From: Fimicolochytrium jonesii
Lineage: Eukaryota
Direction: 5' to 3'
NCBI RefSeq assembly: GCF_025526975.1
Contig: NW_026515688.1
Coordinates: 124,001-188,000 of the forward strand
DNA: 64,000 bases
The notes under the pieces were generated by a model. That model was not told the DNA's origin, did not search any database, and saw only the letters and a list, made by a program, of their open reading frames with translations. Made by a program: the position numbers and the translations under genes. Shown here piece by piece: positions 28,083-60,975 of this stretch (position 1 is its first letter; each line of letters opens with the position of its first letter).

Positions 28083-28155
28083 TGCTTCCGCTCGGGATTG
28101 AACCGAGGACCTCTTCGGTGTAAACGAAGCGTGATGACGACTACACTACGGAAGC
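28083..28155 (-). tRNA. tRNA-Val(UAC)
   Basis: GCTTCCG/CGGAAGC acceptor stem, CTTCG-TT-TAC-AC-CGAAG anticodon arm, GGTTCAATCC T-loop (B box), and T runs downstream consistent with a Pol III terminator. Confidence 0.95.
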
Positions 28156-31774: not shown

Positions 31775-31910
31775 TTTGGGTCTACAAGATCAAGATGAAT
31801 GCTCAGGGCAGTATCAAATGTTACAAGGCCAGACCCGTCGCCCAAGGCTTCTCACAAGAAGAGGGAGTGGATTACAACGAAACATTTGCTCCAGTAGCCA
31901 AGTTTGACAC
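31775..31910 (+). mobile_element. Short copia family A RT fragment
   Basis: WVYKIK...[30 protein letters not shown], nearly the same as 33590-33718. It ends abruptly at TGTAATGTG. Confidence 0.85.
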
Positions 31911-31962
31911 TGTAATGTGGGTTGTCCTGTCTACTTGGAGAACCACGCGTCGGTCATGTTGC
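31911..31962 (+). mobile_element. Start of an LTR related to the gypsy family D LTR
   Basis: TGTAATGTGGGTTGTCCTGTCTACTTGGAGAACCACGCGTC resembles 56804 TGTAATGTGTGTTGGGTTGTCCGGTTTTATTGGAGAACAACGTGTC. The far end could not be defined. Confidence 0.5.
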
Positions 31963-37700: not shown

Positions 37701-40700
37701 CCTTACCTATCCTTCGCTGGACCAATCACGGCCCTATACCAAACGCACCGCAGTCTGTCACCATCAAGCGCGAGAGAACTTCAAGAAACTGGGAAGACGT
37801 CGAATATATCCCGAAAAACAACAACCCTTACTTCAATGTACAACGAGACCCGGTCTATGACAAAAGACCCGTTCAACCTGTTTGGATCATTAAACCTGTG
37901 GATACTCGTCCTCTACAAGCCGCACCTCATTATGTATCTCGATTCGCTCAAGCCAATGCCCTTCGCAATCCTCAAGTCATAGAAATGACTTCTAAGCGAT
38001 TCAATAAGGCTTGGCGACGGAACAAGTTTGAAAAAGACAGGGTCTGTCACCTCGCTCTTAACAAAATACCAGACGCTACTCAAGAGCTTAAAGGAAATCC
38101 AGGACATCTCAAAGATATCCTAAATAAATACATCAATACGCTCTTCAAGGAACCGGAAGGTCTACCCCCTGATCGCGGAGAGGATGATTTCAAGATCGAA
38201 CTCACTGAAGGTGCTGAACCCGTTTGGCAACCTCTTCGGCACATGAACAAAGAAGAACTCGCTGAACTCAAGAAACAAATCACCTTGATGCTCGAAAAAG
38301 GATGGATACAACACTCCTCAAGTCCCTGGGCAGCTAGTGTCGTCTTGGCGAAAAAGAAAGATGGCGGATTACGCATCTGTTCGGACTACCGAGGTCTCAA
38401 CGCCGTCCCCAAGAAAGATCGCACTCCTTTACCCAATATTCGTGAGATGAGGGATCGGATTCAAGGTTGTAAATGGTTTACGCTTATCGATATTTGGAAG
38501 CATACCATCGTCTTCTTATACGAAAACAAGATCGAGAAAAAACGGCAATACGAACTCGCTTTGGACATTTCAAGTATTTGGTCATGCCGTTCGGGCTTAC
38601 CAACGCACCTGCTGCATTTCAACGTCTTATGAATAAGATCTTCCATAAAGATTACGACGAATTCCTCGCTACCTACCTGGACGACATTTTCATTTTCTCG
38701 AAGACCTTTGCTGAACATCGGGAACACGTTGATTGTATCCTGAAGAAACTTGAAGAACACGCCCTTTTCATCAAGCCTTCAAAGTGCGTATGGGCTAAAG
38801 AAGAACTTAAATGGTGTGGACATATTGTTGGAAGACATGGTGTTCGCATCGCGCCGTCGAAAATTCAAGCTATCAAGGACTGGGCTACTCCAAAGTCCAC
38901 AAAAGGAGTTCAAAGCTTTCTCGGGTTCACGAACTACTTTCTCGACTTCGTACAAAGTTATTCGGACATCGCTCGGCCCCTATCAAGCATTCAATCTTTG
39001 AAAGTCAAATTTCGATGGGGTCCTGAGCAACAAAGGCATTTCAAAAGTTAAAAGAAGCGTTGATCAATGCGCCTACGCTAGCAACAATCGATGAAACCAA
39101 GCTGATTTGCGTCTATACCAACTCATCAGGCTACACTATCGCTGGCTGGATTGGACAACCTTCTGGCGATGAAACAATTCCTATGAATCTGCCTACTCTC
39201 GTCAGACAATGGAAGAAGTTACCTCGACTCCGGCCTGTGGTCTTCTTTTCTAGAAAGATGAAGGACGCGGAAACTCGATATCCTACGCACGAACAGGAGC
39301 TACTAGCTCTTGTCAAGATGTTGGTCGCCAATTGCCCATATCTCATCGGTCGTTACTTCCAATGCTCTAGCGATCAAAAGGGACTCGAATTCATCCAAAC
39401 GCAAACCCATTTGAGCAGAAGACAAGCCAATTGGGTGGAGAAGCTACAAGAGTATGAGTTCGATATCCAGTATTTACCTGGACGATGGAATCATATCGCC
39501 GACATGCTCTCCCGCAATCCAATCTATGCGCCTCGGTGTGTAGATTGTCAACGACGCCTCGACATGCATACACAGATCAGCAACATGCTTGTCAACGAAC
39601 CTTCCTCCAATGCTACGACAGACGATCCACAAAACTCACCTACCTGCTCAGAAGAAGAATGGAAAAAAACGCTACGCGAAGATCCATATTCGGATTATCT
39701 CGATGAAATTTCTCGAAAGCCTCAACACGAGAAAACTTTGAAAGAAGTCCGTTATATGTTCGAAAATGGATTAGTACGACACAAAGGACATTTATACGTT
39801 CCTGAAGACATTCGCCCGAAGATCTTGAGGAAATTCCATGATGAACTGGCCACCGGAGGACATCTCGGTGTTAAGAAGACTCTTGCGAGAATTCTTATGG
39901 ACTATTACTGGCCTACCGTACGCTCCGACATCATCAAATGAGTTGGAACTTGCAAATCCTGTCGACAATTCAAGCCTGGTCATCGTCGATACGGATTTCT
40001 TCGACCTCTTCCTATCCCTTTTGGAAGATTGCACACGATCGGATTCGACATTTTCGAAGTAGATGAAACAAACTCTTGTCTCGTCTGCATTGATTACCTT
40101 TGCGGACGTGTGATTCTGACACCGATCAAGAAGACAATCACTGGATGCGAACTAGCCCAAGTCTTCCTAGATCATGTTTGGAAACATGTCGGTACGCCAA
40201 AAGTCTTCGTTACGGATCGCAAACCTCACGCACTTTCCGACTTCTTCCTCGCATTCGATCTTCTCCTCGGCGTAAAACACGAATTTGCTACGGCTCGTCA
40301 TCAGCAAACTGATGGCAAAGTTGAGCGAGCCATCCAAACCCTGAAAAGGATTTGGAAGCAATACCTCAACTACGACAAAAGCAATTGGAAGATACTATTG
40401 CCTTTAATCGAATTCGCATGCAACACCGCTCCGAGGGAGGAATATGAAGGTTTATCGCCATTCAAAGTAGATCTTGGACGCTCTCCAATCCTCCCGGGTT
40501 GGAATCCAACACTCGAAGGACAAGAACTCAAACTTCAAGCTGTAGATCGAAACGAAATCGAACTCTTCAAGAAAGGGCAGGAAGACATCTCCCGTATCGT
40601 ACGTAAAAACCTTCAGAGATCGCAAGATCAATTCGCACGTCAACATGACGAAGGTCGAACGCCAATCGCATACAAAATTGGCGACCTCTTCGATTTAAAT

Positions 40701-41717
40701 CGACAAGGAATCAACCTAGAAGTAGACGCTTGAAGAGGACTTCGATACTCAGCTACGTGGATCGGACCATTCAAAATCATCGCACTGGGAGCACATCCTG
40801 ATACCTACGAACTCGATTTATCACCATCAAAGATCAGGGGCATCTGGCCCATCTTTCACGTCGATATTTTACGACCACATTGCGAAGAGCAATATCCCCA
40901 ACATGCAGTTCCACAACCTCCTCCACCAATCGAAGAATGCGGACAACCTGAATGGGTTGTAGAAGACATCATCGACGAGCGACGCGCCATATGAAATCTT
41001 CTAGTCAAATGGCTCGGTTATCCTGACCCTACTTGGGAACCCGAATCCGCACTTCGCTACACGCCTGCCTACAAACGATGGCGAAAAGCTCACCCACAAT
41101 CTTTGTGGATACGGAGACGAACAGCATAGAGCATTTCATATCACATCACACGCGCGACTCCGCAAGAACCACTCATTATCAATCACACCGCTGACAATAG
41201 CGACGTAAACTACATCACATCACGCGCGGCGACGCAAGAACCGACCTTACACATACACATCACACACGACGTCGGCTTAGGGACGCCTTTGCCTCAAACA
41301 CACACATCACACAGTGCGTCAACACTATAAAATGAACAAGTGCGTCAACACTTTAAAAGGAACATGAGCTCTCCCTTCCTTTACATATCCCTCGTAGTTC
41401 ACCTCTTAGTTATTCAGCGCCCTCCTCAGGATCTGAGGGAGGTGTCGGGGAGATCTCATCTTCACTTGCATTTAATATTATATCTCTTTACTTCTACTTG
41501 ATCCGAGACCCGGGCTGGCCACCCAAGCTCTCGGTGATACATTACATAAGGCGCCAAGCCTCACCAAAGCCACGCAAGCCCCACTGGCAGCCCATATACA
41601 AAGCTGTCAGTCGAGCGGCCGCTGCGAAGAGCTTCTTACTTTTTTCTTCACTACAATACACTGCTCTCAGCCCTCTCAGAAGGGCCCAATATCGTCTACA
41701 TTTCCTCTGACATTACA
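34728..41717 (+). mobile_element. Ty3/gypsy chromovirus G1 with 5-bp TSD CAGAT
   Basis: TSD at 34723-34727 and 41718-41722; partial 5' LTR 34728-34873; 3' LTR 41443-41717 (TG...CA) after PPT GAGGGAGG; gag knuckle CPLCNKMGHWRVEC; protease LFDSGA; RT YLDD; RNase H; integrase GHLG...HQQTDGKVER, WIGPF; chromodomain remnant at ~40950-41090. Confidence 0.92.
34874..36729 (+). mobile_element. Fragment of a second gypsy family (G2, Tf2-like): RT-RNase H-partial integrase
   Basis: Uninterrupted frame: TKIDLRGAYNLLR, WKTAFRCRYG, YLDDILIFS, ETDASDFALGAVL, GHFG, SDRGPQF, FHPQSDGQ. It is C-rich, unlike G1 pol. Confidence 0.9.
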
Positions 41718-42025
41718 CAGATCTCTCAGAGAACTGAGCACGCACTAAGACAAGACAGGACTCGTCCAAGGCCCCACTGTCATCTGGGAAGACGACCCAG
41801 GAGCTATGGCACTCGCCACAAACCCAGTTCACCATGCACGAACCAAGCACATCGACATCCGATACCACTTCATTCGTGAACAAGTCCCACACAAGACAGT
41901 TACCATCCAGTACTGCCCAACAAATGATAGCTGATGCGCTCACCAAGCCCCTCCCCATGCCGGGCTTCACACGTCTGAGAGCTGCGATGCACTTAGACGC
42001 TGCAGAGCCTTCAAGTGAGAGGGAG

Positions 42026-42638
42026 TATTGAGATAGCATCAAGATGCAGCACTTAGAAGGCTCTGCCAGACTTAGGAGGACGAGTCTTGGAAGGCTCTGA
42101 AGATGTCTGGACCATTTCCCAGACATCCAGGCGTCAGCACTGCGCTTTCATGATGTTCTTAGAGCTGATGGCGGTCAGTAGTGCCCGTATGGAGCTGTGA
42201 TCGGGTTGTAGTAGCTAGATTGGGTTTTATTGAGCTTGTGGAAGCCTGTAGCACCTTCCGCGGGCTCCGCGGACTTGGCAGACATCCATGGGGGCATCAG
42301 CAGGCTACACAGACTTGGCAAAACCTTACCAACCTTAACTGCGGCACTCAGAGACGCCTTGGGCGTTCTGAGGGGGTCTCAGAGGGTGCTTTGGACGCCC
42401 CGGCACATAGCTAAATCCCCAAGAAAGAAGACCCAGATTCGTATAAAAGGCAGACCTGTTGCCCATCCCCTCTCTTCACTTTATCCTCTTCAATACACTA
42501 CTTTCGATCGCACTACTCTCGTCACATTACTGTCTTCCACATCACAACACTGCCCTTTGGGCAGCTACGTCCCTCAGGCATCGGCGAACCAGTCTTAGTG
42601 ACCTCTCACTAACACCTATATCAGCTAAGGTTTCAATA
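42026..42638 (+). repeat. 3' LTR of copia A with TATTGA...TCAATA termini
   Basis: Follows the polypurine tract GAGAGGGAG (42017-42025). Its 3' ~370 bp match the reverse complement of 47042-47414. Confidence 0.85.
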
Positions 42639-43367
42639 TGTACTCATTGTTTCCCTTTATCTTTCACTTGGATAGACTCGTGAGTTTGCGTGGGGATGTT
42701 GGAGGTATCATCCTCCCGAGTCCCCAGTTAGGGTTCCCTTAGTTTACTTCCTCATGTGACATCACTCCCGCTTACGCCATGCTTCCATGGACATGACTTC
42801 TCCCTTTTCTTACTTCCTCGTGCTTCTCCCATCGTGGGCATAGTCGGTTTCGACGGGCCTGGCGGTGGCACAGCTTCAGAGGGCTTCGGTGTGGAGTTGA
42901 GTTTGAGAAAGTTGGTCTTACCTTGATGGGCGACTGACAGCCGTCTTGTTGTTTTATACTTGCGGCGTTCCCTCTTCTTTGATTTCGATTTCTTTCATTT
43001 CCTTTCAATTTAGTCATAGATATTCATCCCAACGTCCGCCCGCATTTTGCGTAAGGCCGTAGCATTGTACTCATTGTTTCTCTTTATCTCTGACTTAGAT
43101 AGACTCGTGGGTTTGCATGGGGATGTTGGAGGTATCATCCTCCCGAGTCCCCGGCTAGGGTTCCCTTAGCTTATTTCCTCACGAGATCCCACTCCCGCTT
43201 ACGCGATGTTTCTGCGTACGTGACTTCTCCCTTTTCTTACTTCCCCGGACCTTGTGTCCTCCTTTCTGTCTTCAGACAAGACTTTATAACTTCATACAAT
43301 ATAGGGCTTCGTCTTCCCTACATGGTTCTGTTCTCTATTTACATTCCTTTGCCAACTACAGCTAACA
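42639..43367 (+). mobile_element. Rearranged 3' end of copia family C (PPT-partial LTR, antisense-ORF promoter piece, PPT-LTR)
   Basis: Two copies of TGTACTCATTG...TGGGGA-TGTTGGAGGTATCATCCTCCCGAGTCC, with LTR starts at 42697 and 43124. The second LTR ends GCTAACA at 43367. Homologous to the reverse complement of 52391-52860. Confidence 0.8.
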
Positions 43368-43395: not shown

Positions 43396-46300
43396 AAGGC
43401 TCGATAGGGCTTGTCCTGCATCTCAGCAGTCTCTTCAGGCGTTTGAGGTGCCATTTCCTTGGTGAGAGGGCTTCCCACGACGCTGGGAGTTGATACAGGC
43501 TTGCAATCGGTCATCCCATATGTTTCAAGCCATTTTTTGATGTACCCAGCTGGTTGAGCATCAGGAGTTGTTTGGCTCTGTCTCTGGTGACTAGGAGGCC
43601 CAGGAAGTAGTGTAGGGCACCAAGTTCGCGCGTTTTGTATGCTTTCTGAAGTTCCTTGGCCTTGAAGTGGTTGAGGTCCAGTCTCTTGTTGCTCATAACT
43701 ATCAGATCGTTGACTTAGAGGACCAGGATGAGTAGCCATCCCTCAAAGAGCCTGATATAGATGCAATGGTCGGAATCAAGCCTTATGAAGCCTTCCTCGA
43801 TGACAATGCCGTGGATTTCAATCTTCCATTCCCTGGGGGCTTGTTTAAGGCCATAGAGCATCTTCTTGAGTTTAACCACGTGATGCTGTTCTCGTGGCTT
43901 GATGTAGCCCGGTGGCTGCTCCATATAGATCTCCTCACTGAGTGTTAGGTTCAGGAATGTAGTGGATACATCCATTTGGTCCAGTTTGAGGTCTTGAGCC
44001 GCTCCCCAAGACAAGAGTAGTCTGATGGTGTCGAACTTTGCTACTGGGGCGAAAGTTTCGTTGTAGTCAAGTCCCTCTTCTTGTGAAAAGCCTTGGGTGA
44101 CCAGTCTGTTGTAACGTTCGATAGTGCCATCAGCATTCGACCTAATCTTGTAGACCCACTTGCATCCGACGAGGTTGCGGTCATTCAGCGCTGGGCAGAG
44201 CTCCCAGGTCCCATTGTTGACGAGAAGATTCATGTTCAGCATCCATGGCTTCCTTGCAATTGACTGAATCACTCGAGTTCAATGCTTGCTTGAAGGTTTT
44301 GGGCTCTGTGTGCAGTACTTCGGTTGCTACAGGATAGGCGAGGTTCCTTTGACAAACTTGAGTGCTCTGAGAACGTGTGATGCGTCCATACTGCACCAAT
44401 TCATCGTCTTCGGGCTCTTTCTGGTTGTCTAGATCCTCCGAGGCTTCTGCCCACTGATCAGTGTCAGGTTGAAGGTTGGGAAACGCGTCAGGAAGCTCAG
44501 AATCCCCGTCTGCAGCGTGCGGGCGTGATTCGGTGTTGTCTCTGGGCTTGAGTGCGCGTGTACCAGTGTTGTTTGGTTTTGTCTGGTTCTGGATCAAATT
44601 CAAAGCTCGCTAAGCTGTCGTAGGAGCAAGCTGACGTGTCTTCATGCGTATCATCATCTTCCACGCTGTTGTAGAACTTGTCCTCATTGAACTGAACATC
44701 TCTGGATTCGATAATGGTGCCTTGGTTGTCCAGCTCGAGCCATTGGAGCCTCCAGGCTTTGCTGGGGGAGCTGTAGCCGAGAAAAAGGCACTTCTTGGCT
44801 TTATTGTCCAGCCTTCCTCGGTTTTTCTTGAGAACAATTGCATAGGCTATGCATCCAAACACTCTGAGGTGAAGGAGGATGGGCTTGGGACCAAAGAAAG
44901 CTTCATTTAGTATCTTGGAGTCGTCAAGTCAAGGGCAGGCGTAGGACAGCGATTTCGAATATGCACGGCTCCAAGGAGGGCTTCCCCCCAATATTCATGT
45001 CCAAGACCAGCCTGGGTGAGTAGGCATCATGCCATCTCAACCAGAGTGCGGTTCATACATCCCACTACACCGTTCTGCTGTGGAGTGTCCGTAGCAGCGC
45101 GCTGGTGTTTTATTCCAGCCTTTCTGAGTGCGAGGGCGAACTGGAGGGATTCGTATTCGCCTCCTTTGTCTGACCTGAGGACTTCGATCGACTTCCCAGT
45201 CTACTTCCCCATAACAGTCTTGTACTCTTCCCATGTATCAAATTTGTCACGTTTCTTGCTCAGCAGCTTAACCCAGACGGCTCTGGACTTGTCATCAATG
45301 AATGATGCAAAATAGGTGCAGCCCCCAAAAGTAGATGTCCTCATGGGCCCACAGAGCTCAGTGGGGACAAGTGCCAGTACTTCTGTGGCTCGGGTAGCTT
45401 GTTTCTTCGGAAAAGGAGCTCTGGACTGCTTGGAGAGCGCGGAGACTTTGCAGATATGACCCTCAGGGTGCCGAGTGACTCTGATGTTGTGGTCATAGCA
45501 GTTGGTGAGCTTCTAAATGTCTTGGGCATTCAGTTGACCGAGTCTCTGATGCCAGATGTGATAGGGAGTGCTGCGAAGTACTCCTGCTGAGTAGGCGTGC
45601 TCAGGGATAGCTTGAGCCTTCACGGTGTAGAGACCGTTCCCTTTGGGAGCTCTGAATGCGAGAGCACCATCTCCGGTCTTGATTGTGCACTCTGCACTTG
45701 AGAACTCAACTTGTGCTCCATCCTCAGTCAGCTGGGGTACTGAGATGAGGTTCTTTTCCCGTTTGGGATTAGAGCAGACATTTTGAAGCGTGCCAGTATG
45801 CTCCCCATGAGTTCTAACTGTAACGGAGCCCGTTCTGGATCTCAGTTTCCAGCGTCTTGTAGTCCTGGAGCCATTCCCTGACGTGTGTCATGTGTGAGGA
45901 GGCTCCTGAGTCGATAATCCAGCACCCTGGGCTAATTTCCGTGCGTTTCATAGCTGCCATGAAGAGGAACCCGGTTCCCTGGCTGGCCTGGTGTGGTTCG
46001 GCTTGATTCGCATTGTTGGCTTGAGCTAGCTCTCGTTTGAGCTTCTTGCACCCGTTCTTCCAGTGCCCTTCAATCCCACAGTGATGGCACTTTCCCTTCT
46101 TCCTGGCGAACCTGGCTGAACCACCAGCCTCCTGCTGGTGTCCCCCGTCCCCAACGAAGGCGTTTCCAGTCGATCTGACTGGTTTCGAGTTCTCCTGGCG
46201 CCTGGCTTCTTCATTCAGAAGTCTGGCTGTCAAGAACTCCATGTCTAAGTCGTCCGCCCTGCTTTCGAGGCTCGTGATGACTTGTTCGTAGCTGTTTGGT

Positions 46301-47414
46301 AAGCTGTATATCAAGGTCGTCATGATATCGTCTTCGGGTACTGGTGCGCCGATAGCCTCCAGCTGTTGTGCGAGCTGTCTGACTTTGTTGATGTGGTTTG
46401 TGATCGAGTCAGATTCGTTCATAGTGATGGTAAGGAACTTTCGACGTAGGAAGAGCTTGCTGGCGAGCCCCTTTCGTTTGTGCACCTCAGCTAGCTTAGA
46501 CCAGGCTTCCCAAGCGGTCTGAGCTGTATGCACATGCATAAGCTGCGTGTCGTTCAGACTGAGGCAGATGTATGCCAAAGCCCTCTCGTCCTTCCTCTCC
46601 ATCGAGTCCTCCTCCTCTCCTTCAGCCCCCTTTCCCTGCGACGAGCTTGCTGTAGCCGTAGCTCCTTCCTTCTCCTTCTTCCCAGCTTCCACTGCCACCC
46701 AAAGTCCCTTCGCCTTCAACATCATTATCATCCTAAACTTCCATAGATGGTAGTTCTCCCCTGTGAACTTACCCACCAAAAGTCTCGAAGTCTCTGAGTC
46801 TCCAGCCATTGCGTGTTCGAGCTAAAGTCGTCTGTTTCGGGTGTGTGGTCGCGTTTTGGATGTCAAGTAGTGCGTATCTTGTCGAGTTGAGCACTTTGGC
46901 GCGTTTTTCGGTCGGAAACTGGTGATTTTGGAAGGAGATGTCGAGAGGAGTGCGTAGGTAGCGTTCGTAGGGGGTTGGGAACGTCTTGAATGGGATTGGC
47001 GAAGACGGTTTTAGTGATGATAAAGCTCAGGGCTCATAACCTATTGAAACCTTAGCTGATATAGGTGTATCTGAGAGGTCACTAAGACTAGTTCGCCGAT
47101 GACTGAGGGACGTAGCTGCCCAAAGGGCAGTGTTGTGATGTAGAAGACAGTAGTGTGGCTAGAGTAGTGCGATAGAAAGTAGTGTATTGAAGAGGATAAT
47201 GTGAAGAGAGGGGATGGGCAACAGGTCTGCCTTTTGTACGAATCTGGGGCTTCTTTCTTGGGGATCTACCTATGTGCTGGAGCGTTCAAAGCACCCCCTG
47301 AGACCCCCTCAGAACGCCCAAGGCGTCTCTGAGTGCCGCAGTTAAGGTTGGTAAGGTTTTGCCTAGTCTGTGTAGCCTGCTGATGCCCCCATGGACGTCT
47401 GCGAAGTCTGCGTA
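43396..47414 (-). mobile_element. Ty1/copia element B (family A): partial 5' LTR, PBS, gag, PR, IN, RT; 3'-truncated
   Basis: gag at 46809 (KFTGENYHLWKFRM, CHHCGIEGHWKNGC), WIIDSGASSHMT, WHQRLGQL; IN and RT closely similar to element A; LTR 47042-47414. Confidence 0.92.
47030..47041 (-). promoter_or_regulatory. Primer-binding site GGTTATGAGCCC (internal, half-tRNAiMet type)
   Basis: Directly abuts the LTR end TCAATA and is complementary to the iMet anticodon arm GGGCUCAUAACC. Confidence 0.85.
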
Positions 47415-47415
47415 G

Positions 47416-50400
47416 ATAAACATGTTGGCAACTTCAGCATCTCGAAATTGCGGACGTAGCAATCATCACAAAACATCGATACAATCATTCTAGGCGATTC
47501 AAATAGTTTTCAGGACGTCCAGGACAACGTCCACCTCAACTCCTGAAGCCCCTAGTGCGCTATAGTCGAAAAGCGCCGACCTCTAGGTTATTTACCTAGT
47601 AGAACGACCGATACGTCGCAACCACCTCACTTTTCGCACCTGGATGGTTAAACAAACCTCTGTAACTCACAGTTTGCCATCCATACCTTACTCTTTCGGT
47701 AAATCAACATCGTGAGAGTATACGTTCAACGGTTGACACGTGGTCAACATAAACGCGTGTTTACTAGTAGCCAATTAGTAACACGTTCACGGATCGGAAA
47801 TCTACCCCAGCAATTCGATCCCCTTCAAACTCAGAAACCTCGTAGAGCACACTGAGCCTGAAGACTTGTGAAAGTTTCAAAGAGATTCGACCTACGGACA
47901 CGGAGATATCAAAAAATGCACTAAATCGTTGCTCCTATAACCTCCATATAGCAAAACTATCACAGTTTTGACCGAAACGACCCCAGAGTAGGTTTTTCCC
48001 GATCCCGAAAATTACCTTGAATTTACCTGAACGTTTTGGGATTTTTGAATCACAGCAAAACGAGTAATCTGTCATCGCCTTCGTCGTTAATTTGATACTT
48101 GAGCGAAAACGGGCGGATAGGAAAAGTCTTCCAGGTTTGGGACAGAGCTAAGCCGTTGGGGTTCTTCTTGATCCTCTCAAAGGTCTCCTTAAACTGATAG
48201 CTTCAGATCCTGTACAGGATCAACGCAGCCAAAACCCGCCGACATCGGACATGGTGGATTTTGGGGCTTTTCGCTCAAAAAGAGGGAAAATCTATGCCTG
48301 AATTTTGGTTATTGCATACGGCATATACCTGATTCAAAACCTAGTTGTTTGTGTGTATTTGCTCAAGGTACTGAGCTATACAACATCAACGGAGTACTTC
48401 TGTCCGCATTCTGGACGTATTCGTCGTTGTTTGAGGTTATTCAACCTGAAAACAAGATTACACTGGCCAGAAGGTTGTCATGAGTACGTCAACGGGTAGT
48501 ACAGTTACCAGGAGTGAGGACACTACTCCCGGAGGTACAGCTGTTATTACTGAGATCGTTGAGGAGCCGGACACTTCAGTGGACGAACCTCGTGTTGAAG
48601 TTCGCCTTCCTCTTCCTCCTCGAACAACGGGCCCTGTTCCGATGGAGGGTATCCAGGTCGGTGGACCTCCTCCACCGCCTCCTGGTCACCCGCCCGCTAC
48701 GGCTATGCTGACGATCTCCGTCAAGGAGCTCAGTGCCCGAATGAAGGCTGCTGCGGCTGCCGCTCGAGCAGAAGTTTGCGATCAACATGCCAAGGAACAT
48801 CAGGCTGGACGGGATCTTTTGCGAGCTATGTTGGAGCGTGACTCTGCAATGCGCCGTAATGTGCTGCGGGATGGGTCGGTGGATCCATTCTATATCGAGC
48901 AGCGTAGGCACCATGGTACATGGATCTCGCAACATCCGTTCAATGGCAAACGGCGCGAGGCCGCTTTTGTCAACACGTTTTTGCAGGAGCACACGGACTT
49001 CATGGTTACTTTTGGTCTTCCGATTGACGACTTTAAGTACATGCAGAAGGTATCTGGCTCGCTTGAAGGCGACGCACGTACCTGGTTTGACACCGCATAC
49101 AGGCTTGACATGCGGAAAGAGGATTTTGAAACGGCTTTCAAACTAGCGTTTTATCCTACGAATGCGAAAACCAACGCGCTCAATGCTCTGCAACGAATGA
49201 CTTTTCATAAGTCGATGGAGTCGTATGTGATGGAGTTCAAACGTATCGTTGCCGAGGCACAGCGCAACCTGGAGGTCATCACTCCTGACGATTTGAATAA
49301 CCTGTTCCTTTGTGGTCTTGCTTGCGATAAGACCAATACCGTCGGCTATGAGATCGCCCAGTCGTTATTGCATACGATGGTCGATTATAGGGAGCAACAC
49401 CCTCTGCTCGCATTTCCATTGATTTGTTTGATGGATCATGCGCTTAGTTTGGTTGCTGTACGTCGCCTCGCCGGTAAGGGAACCGACGCGAACGATAAAG
49501 CGGTTGCTTCTGGTGGTAGTAATGCGCCTAAACGTGCTAATGTCTCTTCTGCCGCGGGTACTGCGGGCAAGAAGGGGGGGAAAGCTAAGAAGGCGGACGC
49601 TGCTAAACCTTACGCACGCCCAGACCTCTCGCACATGAAGTGTTTTGATTGTGGCGAGATGGGTCATCGTGCGCGAGATTGTCCTAAAAAGAAGAAGGAT
49701 AAGAAGTCCGACGAGGCTAAGGATAAGCCGCATTGGGACGCTGGTCAGAAAAAGGGTTTTCACTACAGACGTTTAATAAAGACACCGCTTATTCGTCTCA
49801 TTGTGCAATGGTGTCCACTGAAGAGGAACTTGAGGCTATACGTCCTGAGTCTGCTGATGGTATACTGGTTGATTGTAGGAATACGTCTGCTGCGGGGGCG
49901 CGTATGTGCCGGCCAGACGAGACTGAAAGCGTTTTGAAGACTAGGCCTGAAGCTGTTGGAGGTATCATCCTCCCGAGTCCTTAGTTAGGGTTCTCGTAGA
50001 TTAGTCCCCAGTTAGGGTTCTAGTAGTTAAGTTCCCCTTGTGACTCCCCTCCCGCTTACGCCATGCTTCTGCGTACGGGACATCACTCTTTTCTTCCCCC
50101 TTCGGGCCTCGCGTCCTCTTTTCTATGGAAGACAATACATACTTCACAGTACTACATCTCACACAACATAGAGTTCGCTCAGTCATCTGCTTCCTCTGCC
50201 GACTACTGCTAAGTGAAGCACTGCAACTGCAACCTGATGTGTTGATCGCACGATGTGCATTTGTAGTTCATGGCAAGTTGAGTGGCAAGTTTTGTCGTAT
50301 TCTGATAGATACGGGATGCACAACACTAATGGTACGTCAGGGATGGGTGTCAAAACATGGTTTCCAAACCTATAACCCCAAAACACCCATTGATGTCGCC

Positions 50401-52390
50401 TGGGGCGACGACGGCCGTACATTCAACGCCAACAAGTTATTTTGGGGCGATCTACAGTTATGGGGAGATGGACGACACTATCCCAGAGAACAGCTTCCAT
50501 GTGTGGTCGCTCCTCTGCGGGTAGATGTTATTCTCGGATTGCCATGGATCTATATGCTTGACGATGTTCGTTTCAAGCACATAGAAGACGAGATTCCTGT
50601 TCTACGATTCCGTGCAGAGGAAGTTGAACATACCCTGGTTGCGAGACCAGTAACTAGGAATTGGGAATCCCAGTCGTCCTGTAATGCGGCCGATCTGCGG
50701 TCCTTTGACACCAGAAAGAAGTCTAAACGATTCAAGGCGGCGATGCCTGAACGAGAAGACTCGAGTGCAGGAGTTGTAACTTATCAGAAGTTCACTCGCT
50801 TATCTCGAAAAAAGGTGTATGGGAAGTGCTACATAGCGTACGCTATGGACATAGAAGCTGCAGTGAATGCGTCACCAGCTTATGTCCCCGCAGATGAGCG
50901 CAATCGCGCTGAACCAGAGCCAGAGGTTCAAATAAGCGATATATCAGGACAGAAGGCTGATTTGGGCGTGCCATCGAATCACCTTCTTTATCCAACGTTA
51001 GAGAAGTACATGGATAGTTTGTTTGTCGAGCACGCAGAGTTGCCACCCGATAGAGGAGAGGATAACTTCCATATCCAGCTGGAGCCTGGTACGAAACCAG
51101 TCTTTAATCCTTTACGGCATATGAGCGAAGCCGAACTCAAAGAGCTGAATGAGGAGGTTACTCTCATGCTCGGGCGTGGTTGGATCCAACACTCGCAGAG
51201 CCCGTGGGGCGCGGCAGTGTTATTCGCTAAGAAAAAGGATGGCAGTCTCCGTATGTGCATCGACTATCGTGGGCTGAATAAAGCAACGATAAAGGATTGT
51301 ACGCCGTTACCAAATCTTGCAGAGATGCAGGATCGGTTACGTGGAAAGAAGTTCAAGTCTTTGTTGGATATCAAAGATGCGTATCACCGCCTCTTGGTTT
51401 GCAAGGCTGATAGAGACAAAACAGCGTTTCGGATGCGGTTTGGTCATTTCGAGTACTTGGTTATGCCATTTGGGTTGACGAATGCGCCAGCAACGTTCCA
51501 ACGGTTAACCAATAAGATATTGGGGAAAATGTACGATGCGTATGTCATATCTTACCTGGATGATATCTTAATCTTCTCGGAAACGGCCGAGGAGCATACC
51601 GCTCATGTGGATAGCGTTTTGGCTGTTCTAGCCGAGCACAAACTCTATGTTAAGCCGTCCAAGCGCAAATGGATGCAGAAAGAGCTTGAAATCTGCGGCC
51701 ATGTCCTGGGAGAAGATACGATGGCCATTGCACCCTCGAAATTGAATGCCGTGCGAAACTTTGCACGTCCTACGAAACAGAAAGAGGTCCAATCTTTCTT
51801 AGGATTGACCAATTACCTGAGTCAATATGTCGATTGTTATGCATACATCACGTATCCATTGACAGAGCTACAGTCGGGCAAAAGGCCTTGGCACTGGGGC
51901 AATGTCGAAGAGACGGCTTTTGTTAAGCTGAAGGAAGCTATTATCACAGCTCCTACGCTCGCATCTTATGACCTGGAGCGAGATTTATACGTGTTCACGG
52001 ATGCATCGGGTTTTGCAATTGGAGGATGGCTCGTCCAGCCGGCGGATCCGTTGGAGCATTACCCATCACCGTTGCCTACCTCAGTGAAGGAATTTAAGAA
52101 TCTGCCACCGTTAAAGCCGATAGCTTTCTTTGGGCGGAAGATGCAGCCCGCTGAAACACGTTACCCCGTGCACGAACAAGAGCTATCAGCTCTGGTTAGG
52201 ATAAGCAAGGCGAACAGACATTACTTGCAGGATCGGACGAATGACCGCCCGTTTCGCGCGTTCACCGATCAGGCTAGTTTGGTCTGGCTGCAGACACAGC
52301 CCTTCCTGAGCCATCGCCAAGCACAATGGGTTGAATTCCTGCAACAATTCAAATTTGATATTGAATATCAACCTGGTCGTTGGAACACCG
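47416..52390 (+). mobile_element. Ty3/gypsy element D1 (leader, gag, PR, RT, RNase H; both ends truncated)
   Basis: gag at 48480 with CFDCGEMGHRARDC; ILIDTGCT; RMCIDYRGLN; YLDDILIFS; FTDASGFAIGG. Interrupted by a solo LTR at 49954-50214. Confidence 0.92.
49954..50214 (+). mobile_element. Solo LTR of copia family C with TSD GAAGC
   Basis: Starts TGTTGGAGGTATCATCC; GAAGC at 49949-49953 and 50215-50219. The uninterrupted site is visible in D2 near 59760 (GGCCTGAAGCACTG). Confidence 0.9.
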
Positions 52391-52894
52391 TAGCAGTAGT
52401 TGGCAGAGGAAGCAGATGACTGAGCGAACTCTGTGTTGTGTGCAATGCCGTACTGTGAAGTATGTATTGTCTTGTGTAGAAAAGTCTGAAGTGTAAAAAG
52501 GACGCGAGGTCCGAAAGGGAAGAAAAGAGTGAAGTCCTGTATGCAGAAGCGTGGCGTAAGCGCGAGGGGAGTCACGTGAGGAAATAGACTACGGGAACCC
52601 TAACCGGGGACTTGGGAGGATGATACCTCCAACACCCCCACTCAAACTCACGAGTCTATCTAAGTGAAAGATAAAACAAACAATGAGTACAATGGTGTGA
52701 CCGTACGCGAAAAGCGGGCGGTCGGGGTGATGAATAGCTATGACTAAAAATGAAAGAAATGAAAGAGTAAAATGAAAGGAGAGGGAAACGCCGCCAGTAT
52801 AAAACAAGACAGCTGTCAGTCGCCCAAGCGAGGTAAGACCAACGTTCCCATACTCAACTACCGGATCCCAGACTACCACACGATACGCGAAACA

Positions 52895-53547
52895 ATGGTG
52901 AACGGAGGCAAGAACGGCGGGAGTGGCAAGAAGAGCGGTGACGGCAAGAAGAAGCAAACGGCCCGTAAGACGGGAGCGCCCGCGGCCCCTCCAGCTGCAC
53001 CTCCTCCGGGACCCTCACGACCGACAACGCGCTCTACGCGCGCATCATCCGCAGCGTCCGCAAGCGACTCTTCGATGTTGAAAGCCCGAGTTAGAGAAGC
53101 TCTTCGTTTGCGACGGAAGTATCGACGTTGAGGTACCGCAAGGATAACCATGAGAACCTCGCGAAGCACCTGGCGTTTACGAAGGCGAAACTGGATCGAT
53201 CGAAGCGAAAGAAGCGGTCGTTCGAGGCATTGATGGAGGGGGCAGACTACCTTGGATGTAAGGCAGTCTCGGAGTCGCGATATAAGGCAAAAGGCAGCAT
53301 ATCGAAAGAAAAGATGAAAGAGGCGAAGCGCCGCAGTGATGCGGTCGAGAGACGGGAGCGAGACAAGATGTTGAAGCGACTCCAGTACTTGCGAAAGCAC
53401 ATGGATGATTCATCTTCGAGTGACGATGGAGACGGTGACGGAAACGGCGGGGGAGGTGGTCCAGGGGGTCCGCCTGGTGGAGGCGGAGCCGGAGCCGGTG
53501 GAGCCCCCGGTGCCGGGGCAGCGGCGACTATCACGGTGGCGGGTTAA
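52895..53547 (+). pseudogene. Antisense extra ORF of copia C (basic, coiled-coil-like, Gly-rich tail), one frameshift near 53100
   Basis: MVNGGKNGGSGKK...LKARVRE / TEVSTLRYRKDNHENLAKHLAFTKAKLDRSKRKKRS...DDSSSSDDGDG...TITVAG-stop. Lies between the pol stop (~53606) and the PPT/LTR. Confidence 0.65.
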
Positions 53548-55313
53548 GGTGCCGAAGTCGTATGTAGTGCCCAGAAGCCGTCCCGGTATGGGTGTTCCAT
53601 ATGTCTCATTCGGACGTCGTCGTCGCTGGCTGTCTATTGCTAGCGACACGTCCTTCTTGAATTGCTTGAATAATTTTCCTATGTGTCTCGGGAGGAAAGG
53701 GCTTGGTAAAGTAATCAGCCAGTTGTTCCTGCGTCGCGGTGTCGAGGAGTACGACGTCTTTCTTCGCACGCCGTCGCGTAGCTTGTGGTAGCGTACGTCG
53801 ATGTGTTTGGAGCGTTGAGTAATAGCCGTGGAGTTGGCAATCTCGCGTGCGCTCTGATTGTCGATGTGAAGTGGCGTGGGGTCTTGATGTTGCCGTATTC
53901 GTCGCCGAAGACCTCCGCGATGATCGAGCGGAGCCAGATGACCTCGTTGTAAACGAGGGATGCGGCGATATACTCAGCTTCCGTGGAGCTGAGAGCTACG
54001 CACTTCTGCTTGGTGCTTTTCCAGTAGATAAGCTGGCCGTGGAAGAAGCTGGCGATGCCCGCGGTAGATTTGCGATCGTTGACATCGTCTGCGTAGGATG
54101 CGTCTGTATAGACGCGAAGTCCAGCCTGATCTGAATGGCCGGACTTGTAAGTAAGCTCGAAGGTGCGGGTACCTTTAAGGTAGCGCATGATGCGAAGTAC
54201 ATCATTCCAGTCGGCTTGAGTAGGAGCTGAGACTTGACGTGCGACGAAGCCGACGGCAGTTGAAATATCCCAGCGCCGGGTAATGGATGCCCACGTGAGG
54301 GCCCCCACTGCTTCCTGGTAGAGAAGCTTACTATGAAAAGGGGGGCTTGCGGAGGCTGGTTGGGTACGCGCAGAGACGGCGCACGGCGTAGAGACCGGGG
54401 TAGCGTTTTGTTGTCCAAATCGTTCGAGTAAACCGTCGATATAGGTAACATTGCTGATTTTGAGTTGGTTCCCTGACGGCGAGAGCTGGTAATCGAAGAC
54501 CAGACCTAGGCAGTTCTTGTAGGGACCGAGATCCGTACAGTTGAAATGAGAACATAGTTCACCTTTCACTTGTTTGACGTGTACCGGAAAGCAGCAGGCA
54601 ATGAAGTCGTTCACATAGATAAGGAGCATCTGGAGGGCGTCCAGAGTGCGCGTCGTTGTCGCGTGGCGATAGAAGACGCAAGGGCAGTTCTTTAACGGGG
54701 TAAAGCCGAGAGAACTGAGGGTTTTGCGAAGAGTACGGTACCAGAGAAGCGGAGACTGCTTCAGACCGTATAGAGCTTTGCGTAGGAGGTATACCCAGTC
54801 TGCGCGCGGTTTCTGCGGATCTTCGTAGCCTTGAAATTGTTCAACATAGACGGGTCCGTCGATATCGCTGCGTAAGAACGCGTTGGGGACGTCGAGTTGA
54901 TGGATTTACATACCAAGAGAGACGGCAATGGAGAGGAAAAGGCAAAGAACTGACATGGGTAGGGTTGGAGTGTAGGTGTCGTTATAATCAATACCCTTAG
55001 ATTGAGGAAAACCTTGAACTACACCGCTGCCCTTGAATTTCTTGAAAGTACCATCCGGATTGAAGATTTGACGAAGTACCCAAGTACTACCGAGTAGGCG
55101 CTGATTTTGCGGACGGGGTACGAGCTCCCAAGTCCCGTTATCAACTAGAGCTTGGAACTCTTTATCAGCTGCGAGCTTGAAGTCAGCTGTTTGAGGGGAG
55201 GCCATTGCTTGTCGCCAGGTCTTAGTGACTGATTGAGGCGTGTCTTCGGTACGCGCGTTGAAGGCGTTCGAGAGGGCTTCAATGGTTCGGGCGTTGAAAG
55301 CGTCTGGACGAGA

Positions 55314-55466
55314 CTCCCAGATGTGCAACGCTTCAGTCTCAATGAGATCAGACCGTGGTTGCCAGGTAGGGGTAGTAAAACCAACCCACTTGATGAGGTA
55401 TTCCTTTTGGACGTTCTTGCCACGGCGTTGACGTTCAGAAAGGATGTGTTCGATAGGGAACTCCTC
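55314..55466 (-). other. Chromodomain within copia C pol
   Basis: EEFPIEHILSERQRRGKNVQKEYLIKWVGFTTPTWQPRSDLIETEALHIWE, in frame with the downstream RT ORF (54906-55328). Confidence 0.88.
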
Positions 55467-56803
55467 TTGCGAGGTTGGAGCATCTTCTAGAAAATCTAGG
55501 AGAGCAGGATCTTGACGCGGGTGGTCAGAGCAGGATCAGAGAGTCCAGTAGATTCGTCGAAACGAACGTCACGTGAGACAGCGACAGTGTCGCGTACTGG
55601 ATCCCAGACATAATAACCTTTGGTGCCTTGTTGGTGAGCATAGCCCACTAGGTACGTCTCGGTAGCACGATTGCCATCTTGTCCCGGCCCTTGGGTGGAA
55701 CTACAGTGTACGTGGGACATCCGAGCTCGCGCAGATGCGCGATGCTTGGGCGGCGACCGGTAAGGAATTCGGAGCGCGATTTGGCGTCCGGGGTTGCAAC
55801 TGAATGCGGGTAGAGGTTGTGCAGGTAAGAGACAGCCTCCAGGATGTACGGCCAGAGCTTGCGGGGAAGCTGAGTGTCCGCGAAGATGGCGCATACGCGA
55901 TCCAGCAACGTCCGATTGAGGCGCTCTGCTTTTCCGTTTTGTTGACTAGAATAACTCATGGGTAATCTCATTGTTGTGTAGGTACGACGTGAACGCGCCA
56001 GTGTATTCTCCTCCCCTATCCGTACGTAGGATCTTGAGGGAGACGCCAGTTTGATTCTTGAGCCACTTATGAAAGATCATAAACCTTGCGGTAACAGTGG
56101 ATGCTTCCTTGTCCTTGATGGAGTAGGTACGGGCGAAATCGGAGCCGTTGTCGAGGAACGCGAGACTGTAGCGCTCTCCGTCGATGCCATGGATCCGAAA
56201 GGGACCTTGTAAATCGCTGTGTATCAGCTCGCCAGGTTTGTGTGGCGGGGATGTCGATTTAGGGAAGGTAAGGCGGGTAGCTTTGCCGAGAGCGCATGGA
56301 GTCCGGCGTAGCCCCCACTGAAGGCCAACCCTCTACTATCTTAGGCATAACCGGGAGATGTGGTTTCCAGGGTGTCCAAGACGTTGATGCAGAAGTTGGG
56401 GGGTTACGGAAGCGACCAGCGCATGTGCATTGGGATTGTAGGTAGTAACCCGTCCTTCTAAATAGTACGCGTCACCTTCGCGCATTCTCATCGCGAGTAA
56501 ATGTCGGTCGGTATTGAACGTAACGACGTTGGTGGGGTGAAAGGAGACGGTAACGGCGTTATCAGTGCATTTAGCAACAGATATGAGCGGCTGGGCAAGA
56601 CTGGGAACCAATAGAACGTCGCAAAGAGCGAGAACGTTGCCGCTGGACGTAGGGTGCATAAGTACGGTACCCTTCTTTTGAGAGGTAATGGTAGTCAAAT
56701 CCGCGAGTCCAATAAGGCGTTGGTAGTCTTGGAGAGAAGATGGATCTAGATCCTCAGTATAGGGGATCATATGATCCGTACAACCGGAATCCACGTTTGC
56801 CTT

Positions 56804-59800
56804 TGTAATGTGTGTTGGGTTGTCCGGTTTTATTGGAGAACAACGTGTCAGTGAAAGACCTATCGCTGTCTAGGTGAAAGGCCTTCCGACCCGTCAGTGA
56901 AAGGCCTTCTGACCTGTCAGTGAAAGGCCTTTCCTAAGCACTCGGGCTTATGCCCTTCACGCTCAGGCTTACGCCCTTCACGCTCAGACAGTGTTCTCCA
57001 GTGGACCCCGACCACATGGGTACTATAACAGTGCTCGTCGCGAGTTCCTATTCACAACAAGTAGTTCTTTTACTACATACCGAATAGCAGCGCCGGCGAA
57101 CACCCAGTCCGTCTACAATACCTTACAGCAAAGTAGTTATTGTATACGAACATCAATTATACAACCCGTGTGGAAGGTAGTGCACATCACGTGGTAGCAC
57201 CACTCCTTCAAACAAAATGAGCTTCCTAGTAGTAAACACGTCGGCAACTTCAGCATCTCGAAATTGCGGACGTAGCAATCGTCACAGAACGTCGATACAA
57301 CACTTCTAGACGATTCAAATAGCCTTCAGGACGTCCAGGACAACGTCCCCCTCAACTCCTGAAGCCCCTAGTGCGCTATAGTCGAAAAGCGCCGACCTCT
57401 AGGTTATTTACCTAGTGGAACGACCGATACGTCGCAACCACCTCGCTTTTCGCACCTGGATGGTTAAACAAACCTCTGTAACTCACAGTTTGCCATCCAT
57501 ACCTTACTCTTTTGGTAAATCAACATCGTGAGAGTATACGTTCAACGGTTGACACGTGGTCAACATAAACGCGTGTTTACTAGTAGCCAATTAGTAACAC
57601 GTTCACGGATCGGAAATCTACCCCAGCAATTCGATCCCCTTCAAACTCAGAAACCTCGTAGAGCACACTGAGCCTAAAGACTTGTGAAAGTTTCAAAGAG
57701 ATTCGACCTACGGACACGGAGATATCAAAAAACGCACTAAATCGTCGCTCCTATAACCTCCATATAGCAAAACTATCACAGTTTTGACCGAAACGACCCC
57801 AGAGAAGGTTTTTCCCGATCCCGAAAATTACCTTGAATTTACCTGAACGTTTTGGGATTTTTGAATCACAGCAAAACGAGTAATCCGTCATCGCCTTCGT
57901 CGTTAATTTGATACTTAAGCGAAAACGGGCGGATAGGAAAAGTCTTCCAGGTTTGGGACAGAGCTAAGCCGTTGGGGTTCTTCTTGATCCTCTCAAAGGT
58001 CTCCTTAAACTGATAGCTTCAGATCCTGTACAGGATCAACGCAGCCAAAACCCGCCGACATCGGACATGGTGGATTTTGGGGCTTTTCGCTCAAAAAGAG
58101 GGAAAATCTATGCCTGAATTTTGGTTATTGCATACGGCATATACCTGATTCAAAACCTAGTTGTTTGTGTGTATTTGCTCAAGGTACTGAGCTATACAAC
58201 ATCAACGGAGTACTTCTGTCCGCATTCTGGACGTATTCGTCGTTGTTTGAGGTTATTCAACCTGAAAACAAGATTACACTGGCCAGAAGGTTGTCATGAG
58301 TACGTCAACGGGTAGTACAGTTACCAGGAGTGAGGACACTACTCCCGGAGGTACAGCTGTTATTACTGAGATCGTTGAGGAGCCGGAGACTTCAGTTGAC
58401 CAACCTCGTTTTGAAGTTCGCCTTCCTCTTCCTCCTCGAACGACGGGACCTGTTCCGATGGAGGGTATCCAGGTTGGTGGACCTCCTCTGCTTCCTGCTG
58501 GTAACCCGCCCGCTACGACTATTTTGACGCTCTCCGTGGAGGAGCTCAATGCCCAAATGAAGGCTGCTGCGGCTGCCGCGCGAGCAGAAGTTCGCGATCA
58601 ACATGCCGAGGAACATCAGGCTCAACAGGATCGTTTGCGAGCTACGTTGGAGCGTGAATCCACCATGCGCTGTGAGGTGCTGCAGGATGGGTTGGTGGAT
58701 TCATTCTATATCGAGCAGCGTAGACACCATGGTACATGGATCTCGCAGCATCCGTTCAATGGCAAACGGCGTGAGGCCGCTTTTGTCGACACGTTTTTGC
58801 AGAAGCATACGGACTTCATGGTTACTTTTGGTCTTCCGATTGATGACTTTAAGTACATGCAGAAGGTATCTAGCTCGCCTGAAGGCGACGCACGTACCTG
58901 GTTCGACACCGCATACAGGCTTGACATGCGGAAGGAGGATTTTGAAACGGCTTTCAAGTTAGCCTTCTATCCTACGAACGCGAAAACAAACGCGCTCAAC
59001 GCTCTGCATCGTATGACGTATCATAAGTCGATGGATTCGTATGTGACGGAGTTCAAACGTATTGTTGCCGAGGCACAGCGCAACCTGGAGGTCATCACTC
59101 CTGACGATTTGAATAACCTGTTCCTTTGTGGTCTTGCTTGCGATAAGACCAATACCGTCGGCTACGAGATCGCCCAGTCGTTATTGCATACGATGGTCGA
59201 TTATAGGGAGCAACACCCTCTGCTTGCATTTCCATTGATTCGTTTAATGGATCGTGCGCTTAGTTCGTTTGCTGTACGTCGCCTTGCCAATAAGGGGACC
59301 GTTGCGAACGATACACCGGTTGCTTCTGGTAGTAGTGCGCCTAAACGTGCCAATGTCTCTTCTGCCGCGAGTACTGCGGGCAAGAAGGGGGGGAAAGCTA
59401 AGAAGACGGAAGCTACTAAACCTTACGCACGCCCAGACCTCTCGCACATGAGGTGTTTCGATTGTGGCAAGATGGGTCATCGTGCGCGAGATTGTCCTAA
59501 AAAGAAGAGGGATAAGAAGTCCGACAAGGCTAAGGATAAGCCGCGTTGGGACGCTGGTCAGAAAAAGGGTTTTCAGTAGAGACGTTTAATAAAGACACCG
59601 TTTATTCGTCTCATTGTGCAATGGTGGCCATCGAAGAGGAACTTGAGGCTATACGCCCTGAGTCCGCTGATGGTATACTAGTTGACTGTAGCAATACGTC
59701 TGCTGCGGGGGCGCGCCTGTGCCGGCCAGACGAGACTGAAACCGTTCTGACGACCAGGCCTGAAGCACTGAAACTGCAACCCGATGCGTTGATCGCACGA

Positions 59801-60036
59801 TGTGCATTTGTAGTTCATGGCAAGTTGAATGGCAAGGTTTGTCGCATTCTGATCGATACGGGATGCACAACACTGATGGTACGTCAGGGATGGGTGTCGA
59901 AACATGGTTTCCAAACCTATAACCCTAAACTGCCCATTGATGTCGCCTGGGGCGACGACGGCCATACATTCAACACCAACAAGTTATTTTGTGGCGATCT
60001 ACAGTTATGGGGAGATGTACGACACTATTCCAGAGA
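56804..60036 (+). mobile_element. Ty3/gypsy element D2 (5' LTR 56804-57191, PBS, ~1.1-kb leader, gag 58296-59579, protease; 3'-truncated)
   Basis: LTR TGTAATGTG...CACATCACG; PBS TGGTAGCACCAC at 57192-57203; leader and gag duplicate D1; similarity to D1 stops after TATTCCAGAGAA. Confidence 0.9.
59567..59628 (+). promoter_or_regulatory. -1 ribosomal frameshift signal (G_GGT_TTT plus stem-loop)
   Basis: Heptamer in the gag frame just before CAG TAG. The -1 frame opens into the protease. Stem GAGACG..AATAAA/TTTATT.CGTCTC follows. Confidence 0.8.
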
Positions 60037-60384
60037 AGGCAGCCGTCGGGATACGTTGTTGTTAGTGAGCCGCCAAGATTTTGTCGCCACCGAGATCCCA
60101 TCACTGATCCCCGTACATCAATACCTGCGTATAATAAAAGCCTTCAATTTCGTGTGAGGCAGAGTCGTCCTCATTTTTGATGCAGCGTTCAGGCCAAGGT
60201 GGTGCTTAACAGGATACTGAGAAAGGGACGTGCGAGCATTAGCTGACCGTCAGCGTGGCTCATAAAAGAGATATGGGTCAGACACTTTTTTAACATGAAA
60301 AGCATGGGCAAAACACTTGCACGGACTGCCACCCTCCGGAGGGAACCTTGTACATACCATTCAAGAAGGGAAGGGGAGGCTCAA

Positions 60385-60975
60385 AACCAAGTGGAGCGCA
60401 AAGCACACATCTTTGACCCGGTGCGAGAGGGACGAACCCTTGTCAAACCACGAGGCGTCGGACGAACCGAAGGGCCTTGTAGCTGCCCCGGACCAGATGT
60501 GTGCATTTGCTGGAGGCGCCAAGCAAAACAAACTCGGCCCAGAGCGAGAGGGACGAACCCTTGTCAAACCCCGAGGCGTCGGACGAACCGAAGGGCCTCG
60601 AAACTGCCCTGAACCGACATTTTGCTGGCGGCTCCACATGATTGTGGACCAACAACTCGGCAGCTGTAATAAGAGCTGCACGTTAGTTTAAAGCCAACAT
60701 TCCAAATAGCGAGGCAAAAGTGTGCATACATTTTGTTGGAGAAGTAAAACGCAAACCAAGTGGAGCGCAAAGCACACATCTTGCCCGGGGCGGCAAACCA
60801 CGCGGCGTCGGACGAACCGAAGGGCCCTAATAGCTGCGCTGCCCCGGAACCAGATGTGTGCATATGCTGGGGGCGCCAAGCGAAACAGACTCGGCCCAAG
60901 TCAAAATACGCGGCGTCGGACGAACCGAAGGGCCTGTAGCTGCACTGGGCCGACGTTTTCGTCGGCGGCTCCACA
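60385..60975. repeat. Complex non-coding repeat block with four exact copies of GGCGTCGGACGAACCGAAGGGCC
   Basis: Cores at 60454, 60575, 60804 and 60912. Block ~60385-60640 is imperfectly duplicated at ~60755-60975. Confidence 0.9.

Follow-up and report, generated by a model that had tools for sequence, protein, structure and literature searches.

The 51 residues encoded at 55314-55466 on the minus strand of the window (the 64-kb stretch of DNA analyzed here) are confirmed as a chromodomain, and they lie within a decayed copy of a fungal Ty1/copia retrotransposon, between integrase and reverse transcriptase (RT). The domain, whose aromatic cage is intact, was probably kept on the integrase, where it would tether the enzyme to heterochromatin carrying methylated H3K9 and place new copies among silenced repeats. 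A chromodomain in a copia element is in itself known, from the CoDi-A elements of diatoms; what is new here is the canonical cage, the deep fungal clade that carries the domain, and the Ty3-type Gag found in that clade.

A chromodomain in a decayed copia element

The element, referred to as copia C, occupies the minus strand, and its pol region extends to approximately 56845, where the gypsy element G2 cuts just upstream of the protease, leaving the main copy without gag and 5' LTR. Its parts are listed below in coding order.

56558..56794 (-): copia-type aspartic protease (Pol_BBD), by Pfam
55549..56470 (-): copia integrase (pre-integrase/zinc part, rve core, SH3 tail), with stops and two frameshifts; ends approximate
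55467..55548 (-): acidic integrase-chromodomain linker, holding the frameshift between integrase tail and chromodomain
55314..55466 (-): chromodomain, group I type, cage F/W/F, by Pfam, PDB alignments, AlphaFold and Foldseek
55221..55313 (-): chromodomain-RT linker, containing a patch of small hydrophobic residues (putative cleavage site) and 36 bp duplicated in frame (55248-55303)
54381..55220 (-): copia RT (RVT_2), with one stop at 54906-54908; YVND replaces YVDD
53660..54110 (-): RNase H, with two frameshifts; ends approximate
52635..52643 (-): polypurine tract
52391..52634 (-): 3' LTR of the main copy, starting TGTTGG; terminal bases altered where it abuts the RNase H of gypsy G1

This copy is dead and no longer able to transpose: it has at least five frameshifts, stops both before the integrase and within RT, and an RT active site that reads YVND. 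Its assignment to copia, made already in the first-pass annotation, stands: the order is protease-integrase-chromodomain-RT-RNase H (PR-IN-CHD-RT-RH), the RT is RVT_2 and not RVT_1, and the RT-RNase H region aligns and trees with copia. The family also has the TG-starting LTR, polypurine tract and target duplication (4-6 bp) of Ty1/copia elements, the CA end being present only in the copy at 43124, and the best PDB match of the integrase profile is 7z0h, a 635-aa integrase that we take to be that of Ty1. The RVT_1 RT and RT-RH-IN order of chromoviruses are absent, a chromodomain behind the integrase is present, and the domain combines the Chromo fold with the three aromatic cage residues of the Group I, or HP1-type, class. 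The gag of G2 was considered as a candidate gag for copia C and was rejected, since it lies on the opposite strand and shares 95% identity with G1, whose sequence continues into RVT_1. In the 1-kb interval between the RNase H and 3' LTR of copia C, at 52763-53547 (+), lie two overlapping antisense frames of 122 and 150 codons, lysine-rich and then acidic/glycine-rich, with no Pfam match.

The peptide quoted in the first-pass annotation is the exact translation of 55314-55466 (-), in frame with RT and one frameshift from the integrase tail VSRDVRFDE, which lies upstream in another frame. In the Pfam comparison that had been proposed there, the 51-mer scores above the cutoff for Chromo (PF00385; 25.7 versus 25.1 bits, E 1.1e-5), and the 209-codon stop-to-stop frame that contains it (54909-55535), and that runs on into the N-terminus of RT, gives 23.2 bits for Chromo, below the cutoff, and 40.8 bits for RVT_2. 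All five PDB sequence alignments shown are to chromodomains (HP1, CBX, CDY, Chp1), and in those with HP1, CDY1 and CBX8 the F, W and F residues occupy the three cage positions, as had been claimed. The AlphaFold model consists of three strands and one helix (block pLDDT 92-96, residues 31-70), and its top Foldseek matches are the Chp1, CBX4, CDY1 and HP1 chromodomains, with a probability of 1.00 and, for crystal structures, an RMSD of approximately 2 A, no Foldseek match reaching E 0.001 (best E 1.7e-3). The window copy has Q at the position of the conserved TWEP glutamate. An HMM built from relatives, with the window copy excluded, scores the frame at 59.4 bits and the best of 2000 shuffles (1300 reported) at 6.8 bits, a control that is partly circular because these relatives had been found with the window copy as query. 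For the window frame, ESM Atlas returned scores under 0.9 only. A six-frame HMM scan of the window revealed no chromodomain besides 55314-55466 and one in a gypsy element (40944-41090), and the linker between integrase and RT of the window's copia A and B is indeed without one, as had been stated.

Relatives of copia C

Many of the matches found by a phmmer search of 1.84 billion representatives with a chromodomain-containing query cover both the domain and RT (among the best 150 listed). Pfam Chromo and RVT_2 occur together in 22 of 30 picked matches, mostly chosen for reaching into the domain, and the domain lies just upstream of RT in 27 of 153 RT-bearing proteins, representing 25 separate clusters. 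Word-index protein searches, which are insensitive, returned no matches, three generic copia, and 14 matches with Chromo in P0014 itself only. Among the matches listed, four fragments that are 41-46% identical to the window copy (P0005, P0006, P0012, P0094) have the domain in the corresponding position, flanked on both sides by homologous linkers, the integrase-chromodomain linker of copia C being homologous to that of P0006/P0094 (DPALLDFLE versus PEDLDLLEE). Four members of its clade, P0014, P0063, P0065 and P0081, are intact single-ORF Gag-PR-IN-CHD-RT polyproteins, and P0014, of 1457 aa, is collinear with the window copy over the region from protease through RNase H and has the proposed PR-IN-CHD-RT-RH order in an intact frame.

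Relationships were examined in an RT-RNase H tree of 58 rows (25 main-group chromodomain-positive sequences, 26 chosen chromodomain-negative ones including copia A, and 7 of 43 metagenome loci), which includes no gypsy RT, in which 10 rows fill under half of the columns, and whose support values are rough, since the bootstrap correlation, at 0.980, had not fully settled. The window copy falls into a 4-row clade (100/99) within a 12-row clade (99/99), all 12 members of which are chromodomain-positive, a count in which members that lack the domain may be under-sampled because the query contained it. A FastTree analysis of 151 rows adds only P0089 to this clade, an uninformative fragment in which 16 residues precede RT. 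Each of the 11 clade members with a complete domain has kept the cage, at approximately 30-45% domain identity. The uniform clade and its intact polyproteins make the chromodomain a heritable family trait.

Other chromodomain-positive copia fall outside the 12-row clade, including two proteins of the chytrid Powellomyces hirtus, which among 30 proteins looked up were the only chromodomain-positive ones that carry an organism name. A metagenome scan yielded 43 loci with 26-43% identity, none resembling a close relative, and the seven placed in the tree all lie outside the clade. Two of the 43, in a distant clade, have a chromodomain before RT: L020 (273-434) and L030 (118-276), both on metagenome contigs, are cage-intact and match Pfam Chromo at 34.8 and 36.2 bits, respectively. 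Together with L021 and L017, a 1980-aa single ORF with no chromodomain, they form a second copia clade split from the main group with 100/100 support. Two proteins have unusual domain content: P0034, a 544-aa metagenome protein, has a match of the ADP-ribosyltransferase-exoenzyme-like kind at residues 33-101 (E 4e-7) and, after it, six short-loop chromodomains, and P0180, a 1570-aa copia polyprotein, carries precomputed Pfam matches to PF00642, PF18345 and PF18044, presumably CCCH-type zinc fingers, a possible case of accessory-domain capture.

Genomic setting and proposed role of the domain

Copia C lies in a nest of copia and gypsy retroelements that extends from approximately 31.7 to 60 kb of the window. 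The genes flanking the nest contain introns and include a Glyco_transf_15 mannosyltransferase, a family not known outside fungi, and a flagellar CLAMP gene with three exons; they point to a zoosporic fungus as the host, which bears out the earlier attribution of this copia to a fungus. Family C is represented by three pieces within the 64 kb (main copy, solo LTR and tandem remnant), and the features of the nest that concern it are the following.

40944..41090 (+): chromodomain belonging to another element of the nest, a gypsy chromovirus; 38% identical to that of copia C
42639..43367 (+): family C remnant, two tandem 3'-UTR/PPT/LTR pieces between the copia A 3' end and copia B
47412..52416: gypsy G1, containing the solo LTR of family C
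49954..50214 (+): solo LTR of family C inside gypsy G1, with a 5-bp target duplication, GAAGC (49949-49953 / 50215-50219)
56846..60037 (+): gypsy G2, on the strand opposite to copia C; start inferred from the TG end

G1 and G2, which flank copia C on both sides, are 95% identical copies. Copia A (31777-42641) is interrupted by the gypsy chromovirus at 34728-41588, whose ends of 146 bp are 96% identical and whose two RT-RNase H regions suggest further nesting.

In the mechanism favored here, the protease of the element would cut the polyprotein after the chromodomain, at a site proposed from sequence: a small-hydrophobic patch with an invariant alanine (alignment A2) lies between the chromodomain helix and the start of RT, and because this patch presumably resembles copia cleavage sites, the chromodomain would likely form the end of the mature integrase. 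The cage-intact domain would then, by analogy with HP1, Chp1 and chromoviruses, bind H3K9me2/3, and an integrase tethered in this manner would be expected to bias integration to heterochromatin, with new copies arising among silenced repeats. Heterochromatin targeting by the copia C chromodomain is a role that we infer from chromoviruses, in which the domain is reported to send new insertions into heterochromatin (Gao et al. 2008, cited by PMC6673714, PMC2864245 and PMC6317226). The position of family C among other retroelements, which had been put forward in support of targeting, does not discriminate: copia A and B, which are without a chromodomain, share the same nest, and the location of copia C therefore gives the idea no specific support.

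The domain could also be a conserved trait with a different ligand, be it H3K27me3, a methyl-lysine outside histones or RNA, or one that serves silencing evasion or nuclear retention instead of target choice, an explanation that we regard as rather unlikely but that does draw on several observations. The fold matches cover Polycomb-type CBX and CDY proteins besides HP1 and Chp1, so that the fold does not tell which mark is bound, family C is no more clustered locally than copia elements with no chromodomain, and the available part of PMC6673714 raises the same alternative for the MBDs of copia. What speaks for H3K9me is that the location behind the SH3 tail of the integrase, together with the intact cage, mirrors group I chromoviruses, described in the accessible text of PMC6317226 as H3K9me binders. 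It is very improbable that the domain is a vestige, kept with no current function in the subfamily of the window copy: its four closest relatives are fragments, and hence no guide to activity, and P0035, outside the clade, does have a decayed domain, but all 11 complete domains of the clade, those of the four intact ORFs included, have kept the cage although they have diverged deeply. Least credible of all is a one-off insertion of a gypsy chromodomain fragment into this copy alone, unconnected with any function in the copia family, which the first-pass annotation had named as its own refutation; although this is a nest of rearranged elements, with a gypsy chromovirus carrying a similar short-loop domain 14 kb away (38% identity, and 46% to P0006), the two chromodomains have no DNA-level match, relatives carry the domain at the same place between homologous linkers, and the window copy sits in an all-chromodomain clade of 12 (99/99) with four intact polyproteins, so that this explanation is largely refuted.

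Gag type, origin and known systems

The four clade members that retain Gag (P0014, P0063, P0065, P0081) all match Retrotrans_gag and/or Ty3_capsid in Pfam, and none matches Retrotran_gag_2; a copia-type capsid is absent from all four by Pfam, PDB profile and reciprocal HMM. It speaks against this reading of Gag that P0014 matches Retrotrans_gag with no Ty3_capsid match and that PF03732 alone is not known to be gypsy-specific. Among chromodomain-negative copia with a Gag region, Retrotran_gag_2 was found in 11 of 12, the twelfth having no match, and the Gag of copia B in the window is also copia-type. A profile of six Ty3-type polyproteins matches, over its Gag part, Ty3 Gag 6r22 (E 9e-10) and dArc1 (E 3e-10), and the Copia capsid is absent among the 60 of its 214 PDB matches that were listed; as a control, the profile built from eight polyproteins with copia Gag (P0059 and seven chromodomain-negative ones) matches the Copia capsid at E 4e-34. 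The two types separate reciprocally, since the clade Gag HMM scores the gypsy polyprotein P0190 at 47.7 bits and copia Gags at 9.1 or less, and the copia Gag HMM scores clade Gags at 1.2 bits or less. Over Gag, P0014 and P0190 are 25% identical in 326 residues; against the Ty3-type reading, the clade HMM reaches 7-8 bits only on the window's own gypsy Gags, for which hhalign gives 93% (E 2.6e-7). As a lead only, ESM Atlas places the P0014 Gag with Retrotrans_gag/Ty3_capsid clusters at 0.93, with 143-145 of 256 features shared. Outside the clade, chromodomain-positive proteins have Gags of both kinds, Ty3-type in P0031 and P0035 and copia-type in P0059 and P0126. The protease of P0065 has a weak gypsy-type Asp_protease_2/gag-asp_proteas match and not Pol_BBD, which hints at a Gag/Pol junction differing from that of P0014 and P0063.

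Because all four Gag-retaining members have a Ty3/gypsy-type capsid, the lineage looks, as judged from sequence, like a gypsy-copia mosaic; the Ty3-type Gag is extended to family C itself by inference, as the window copy and its four nearest relatives are without gag. The earlier description as a copia with a chromodomain is thus correct but had overlooked the gypsy-type Gag of the clade. An independent gain of the domain by fungal copia, also proposed there, is not shown, since a single origin of the copia chromodomains was neither demonstrated nor rejected in AU tests (p 0.13 with 25 main-group rows, p 0.21 with 20 rows), in which the groups were named after the tree had been seen, and a domain taken from a gypsy chromovirus would agree with the clade's Ty3-type Gag. 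A chromodomain tree built from 43 rows and 63 columns has no resolved branching; in it, the window gypsy chromodomain, the only gypsy domain included, groups near the C subfamily on a long branch (SH-aLRT 89/81), a grouping that names no donor, and its 46% identity to that of P0006 is about as close as copia domains are among themselves. It is conceivable, and we put it forward tentatively, that the lineage is an undescribed zoosporic-fungal mosaic in which a Ty3/gypsy capsid houses copia integrase, RT and RNase H and a group I chromodomain steers them to their target, capsid and chromodomain both coming from chromoviruses; if true, the two oldest LTR superfamilies could swap Gag and a targeting module with each other.

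Chromodomains are used as a near-diagnostic mark of gypsy chromoviruses, and the copia exception found in print is the putative domain of CoDi-A. In plants, according to the consulted part of PMC6317226, 94% of chromoviruses and no other LTR group carry one; the accessible text of PMC3248453 ties fungal chromodomains to gypsy, that of PMC12440569 only mentions chromoviruses, and "chromo" has no occurrence in PMC5445492, on fungal copia. A literature search whose coverage did not extend to most subscription papers and Repbase found no chromodomain in fungal copia and no copia with a Ty3 capsid. The first-pass annotation passed over the CoDi-A precedent. The available portion of Llorens et al. 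2009 (PMC2774666) describes a putative chromodomain in the diatom CoDi-A copia, at that date in no other copia, and suggests a capture independent of gypsy. Like copia C, CoDi-A combines the copia order with an integrase that ends in a chromodomain; according to the same portion of that paper it has a diatom host, a domain termed putative, a position in copia Branch 1 and, for CoDi2.4, no CCHC arrays, whereas the clade of copia C has a flagellated-fungus host, a canonical cage, a CCHC knuckle (in P0014 and P0065) and a Ty3-type Gag.

Group I chromoviruses such as Tcn1 and MAGGY share with this lineage a cage-intact chromodomain behind the integrase (accessible parts of PMC2864245 and PMC6317226) and the Ty3-type capsid of its intact members, and differ from it in that copia C has an RVT_2 RT and a chromodomain internal in the polyprotein, not at its C-terminus, because the integrase precedes RT. 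CopiaMBD elements of centipede and spider, in the part of PMC6673714 consulted, are copia that acquired a reader of a chromatin mark, for which a role in guiding integration has been proposed; they read methyl-CpG through an MBD in arthropods, and the copia C clade has a chromodomain and lives in fungi. Canonical Ty1/copia, represented by copia A and B, have the PR-IN-RT-RH order, the copia-type protease, integrase, RT and RNase H and the 5-bp target duplication in common with copia C, and are distinguished by a plain linker and by a Retrotran_gag_2 or Copia-type capsid (Drosophila Copia capsid 8vvw). The presence of a canonical domain with its cage intact in a deep clade of fungal copia indicates that capture of a heterochromatin reader recurs in copia, and the intact ORFs of this clade could be used to ask whether a Ty1-type intasome can be guided by a chromodomain. 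Should a Ty3-type Gag prove general in the clade, copia enzymes function with a gypsy capsid, and LTR classification by domains will mislabel such elements.

The elements of the nest also differ in base composition: CpG is depleted in copia A and B (observed/expected approximately 0.6; 32401-34700 and 43400-46800) and not in copia C (1.16), with 1.0-1.3 in the gypsy elements and host genes. Degenerate tandem repeats with a unit of approximately 120 bp mark the right edge of the nest (60384-60975), and a tRNA-Val(TAC) predicted by ARAGORN at 28083-28155 (-) adjoins the eIF3h gene.
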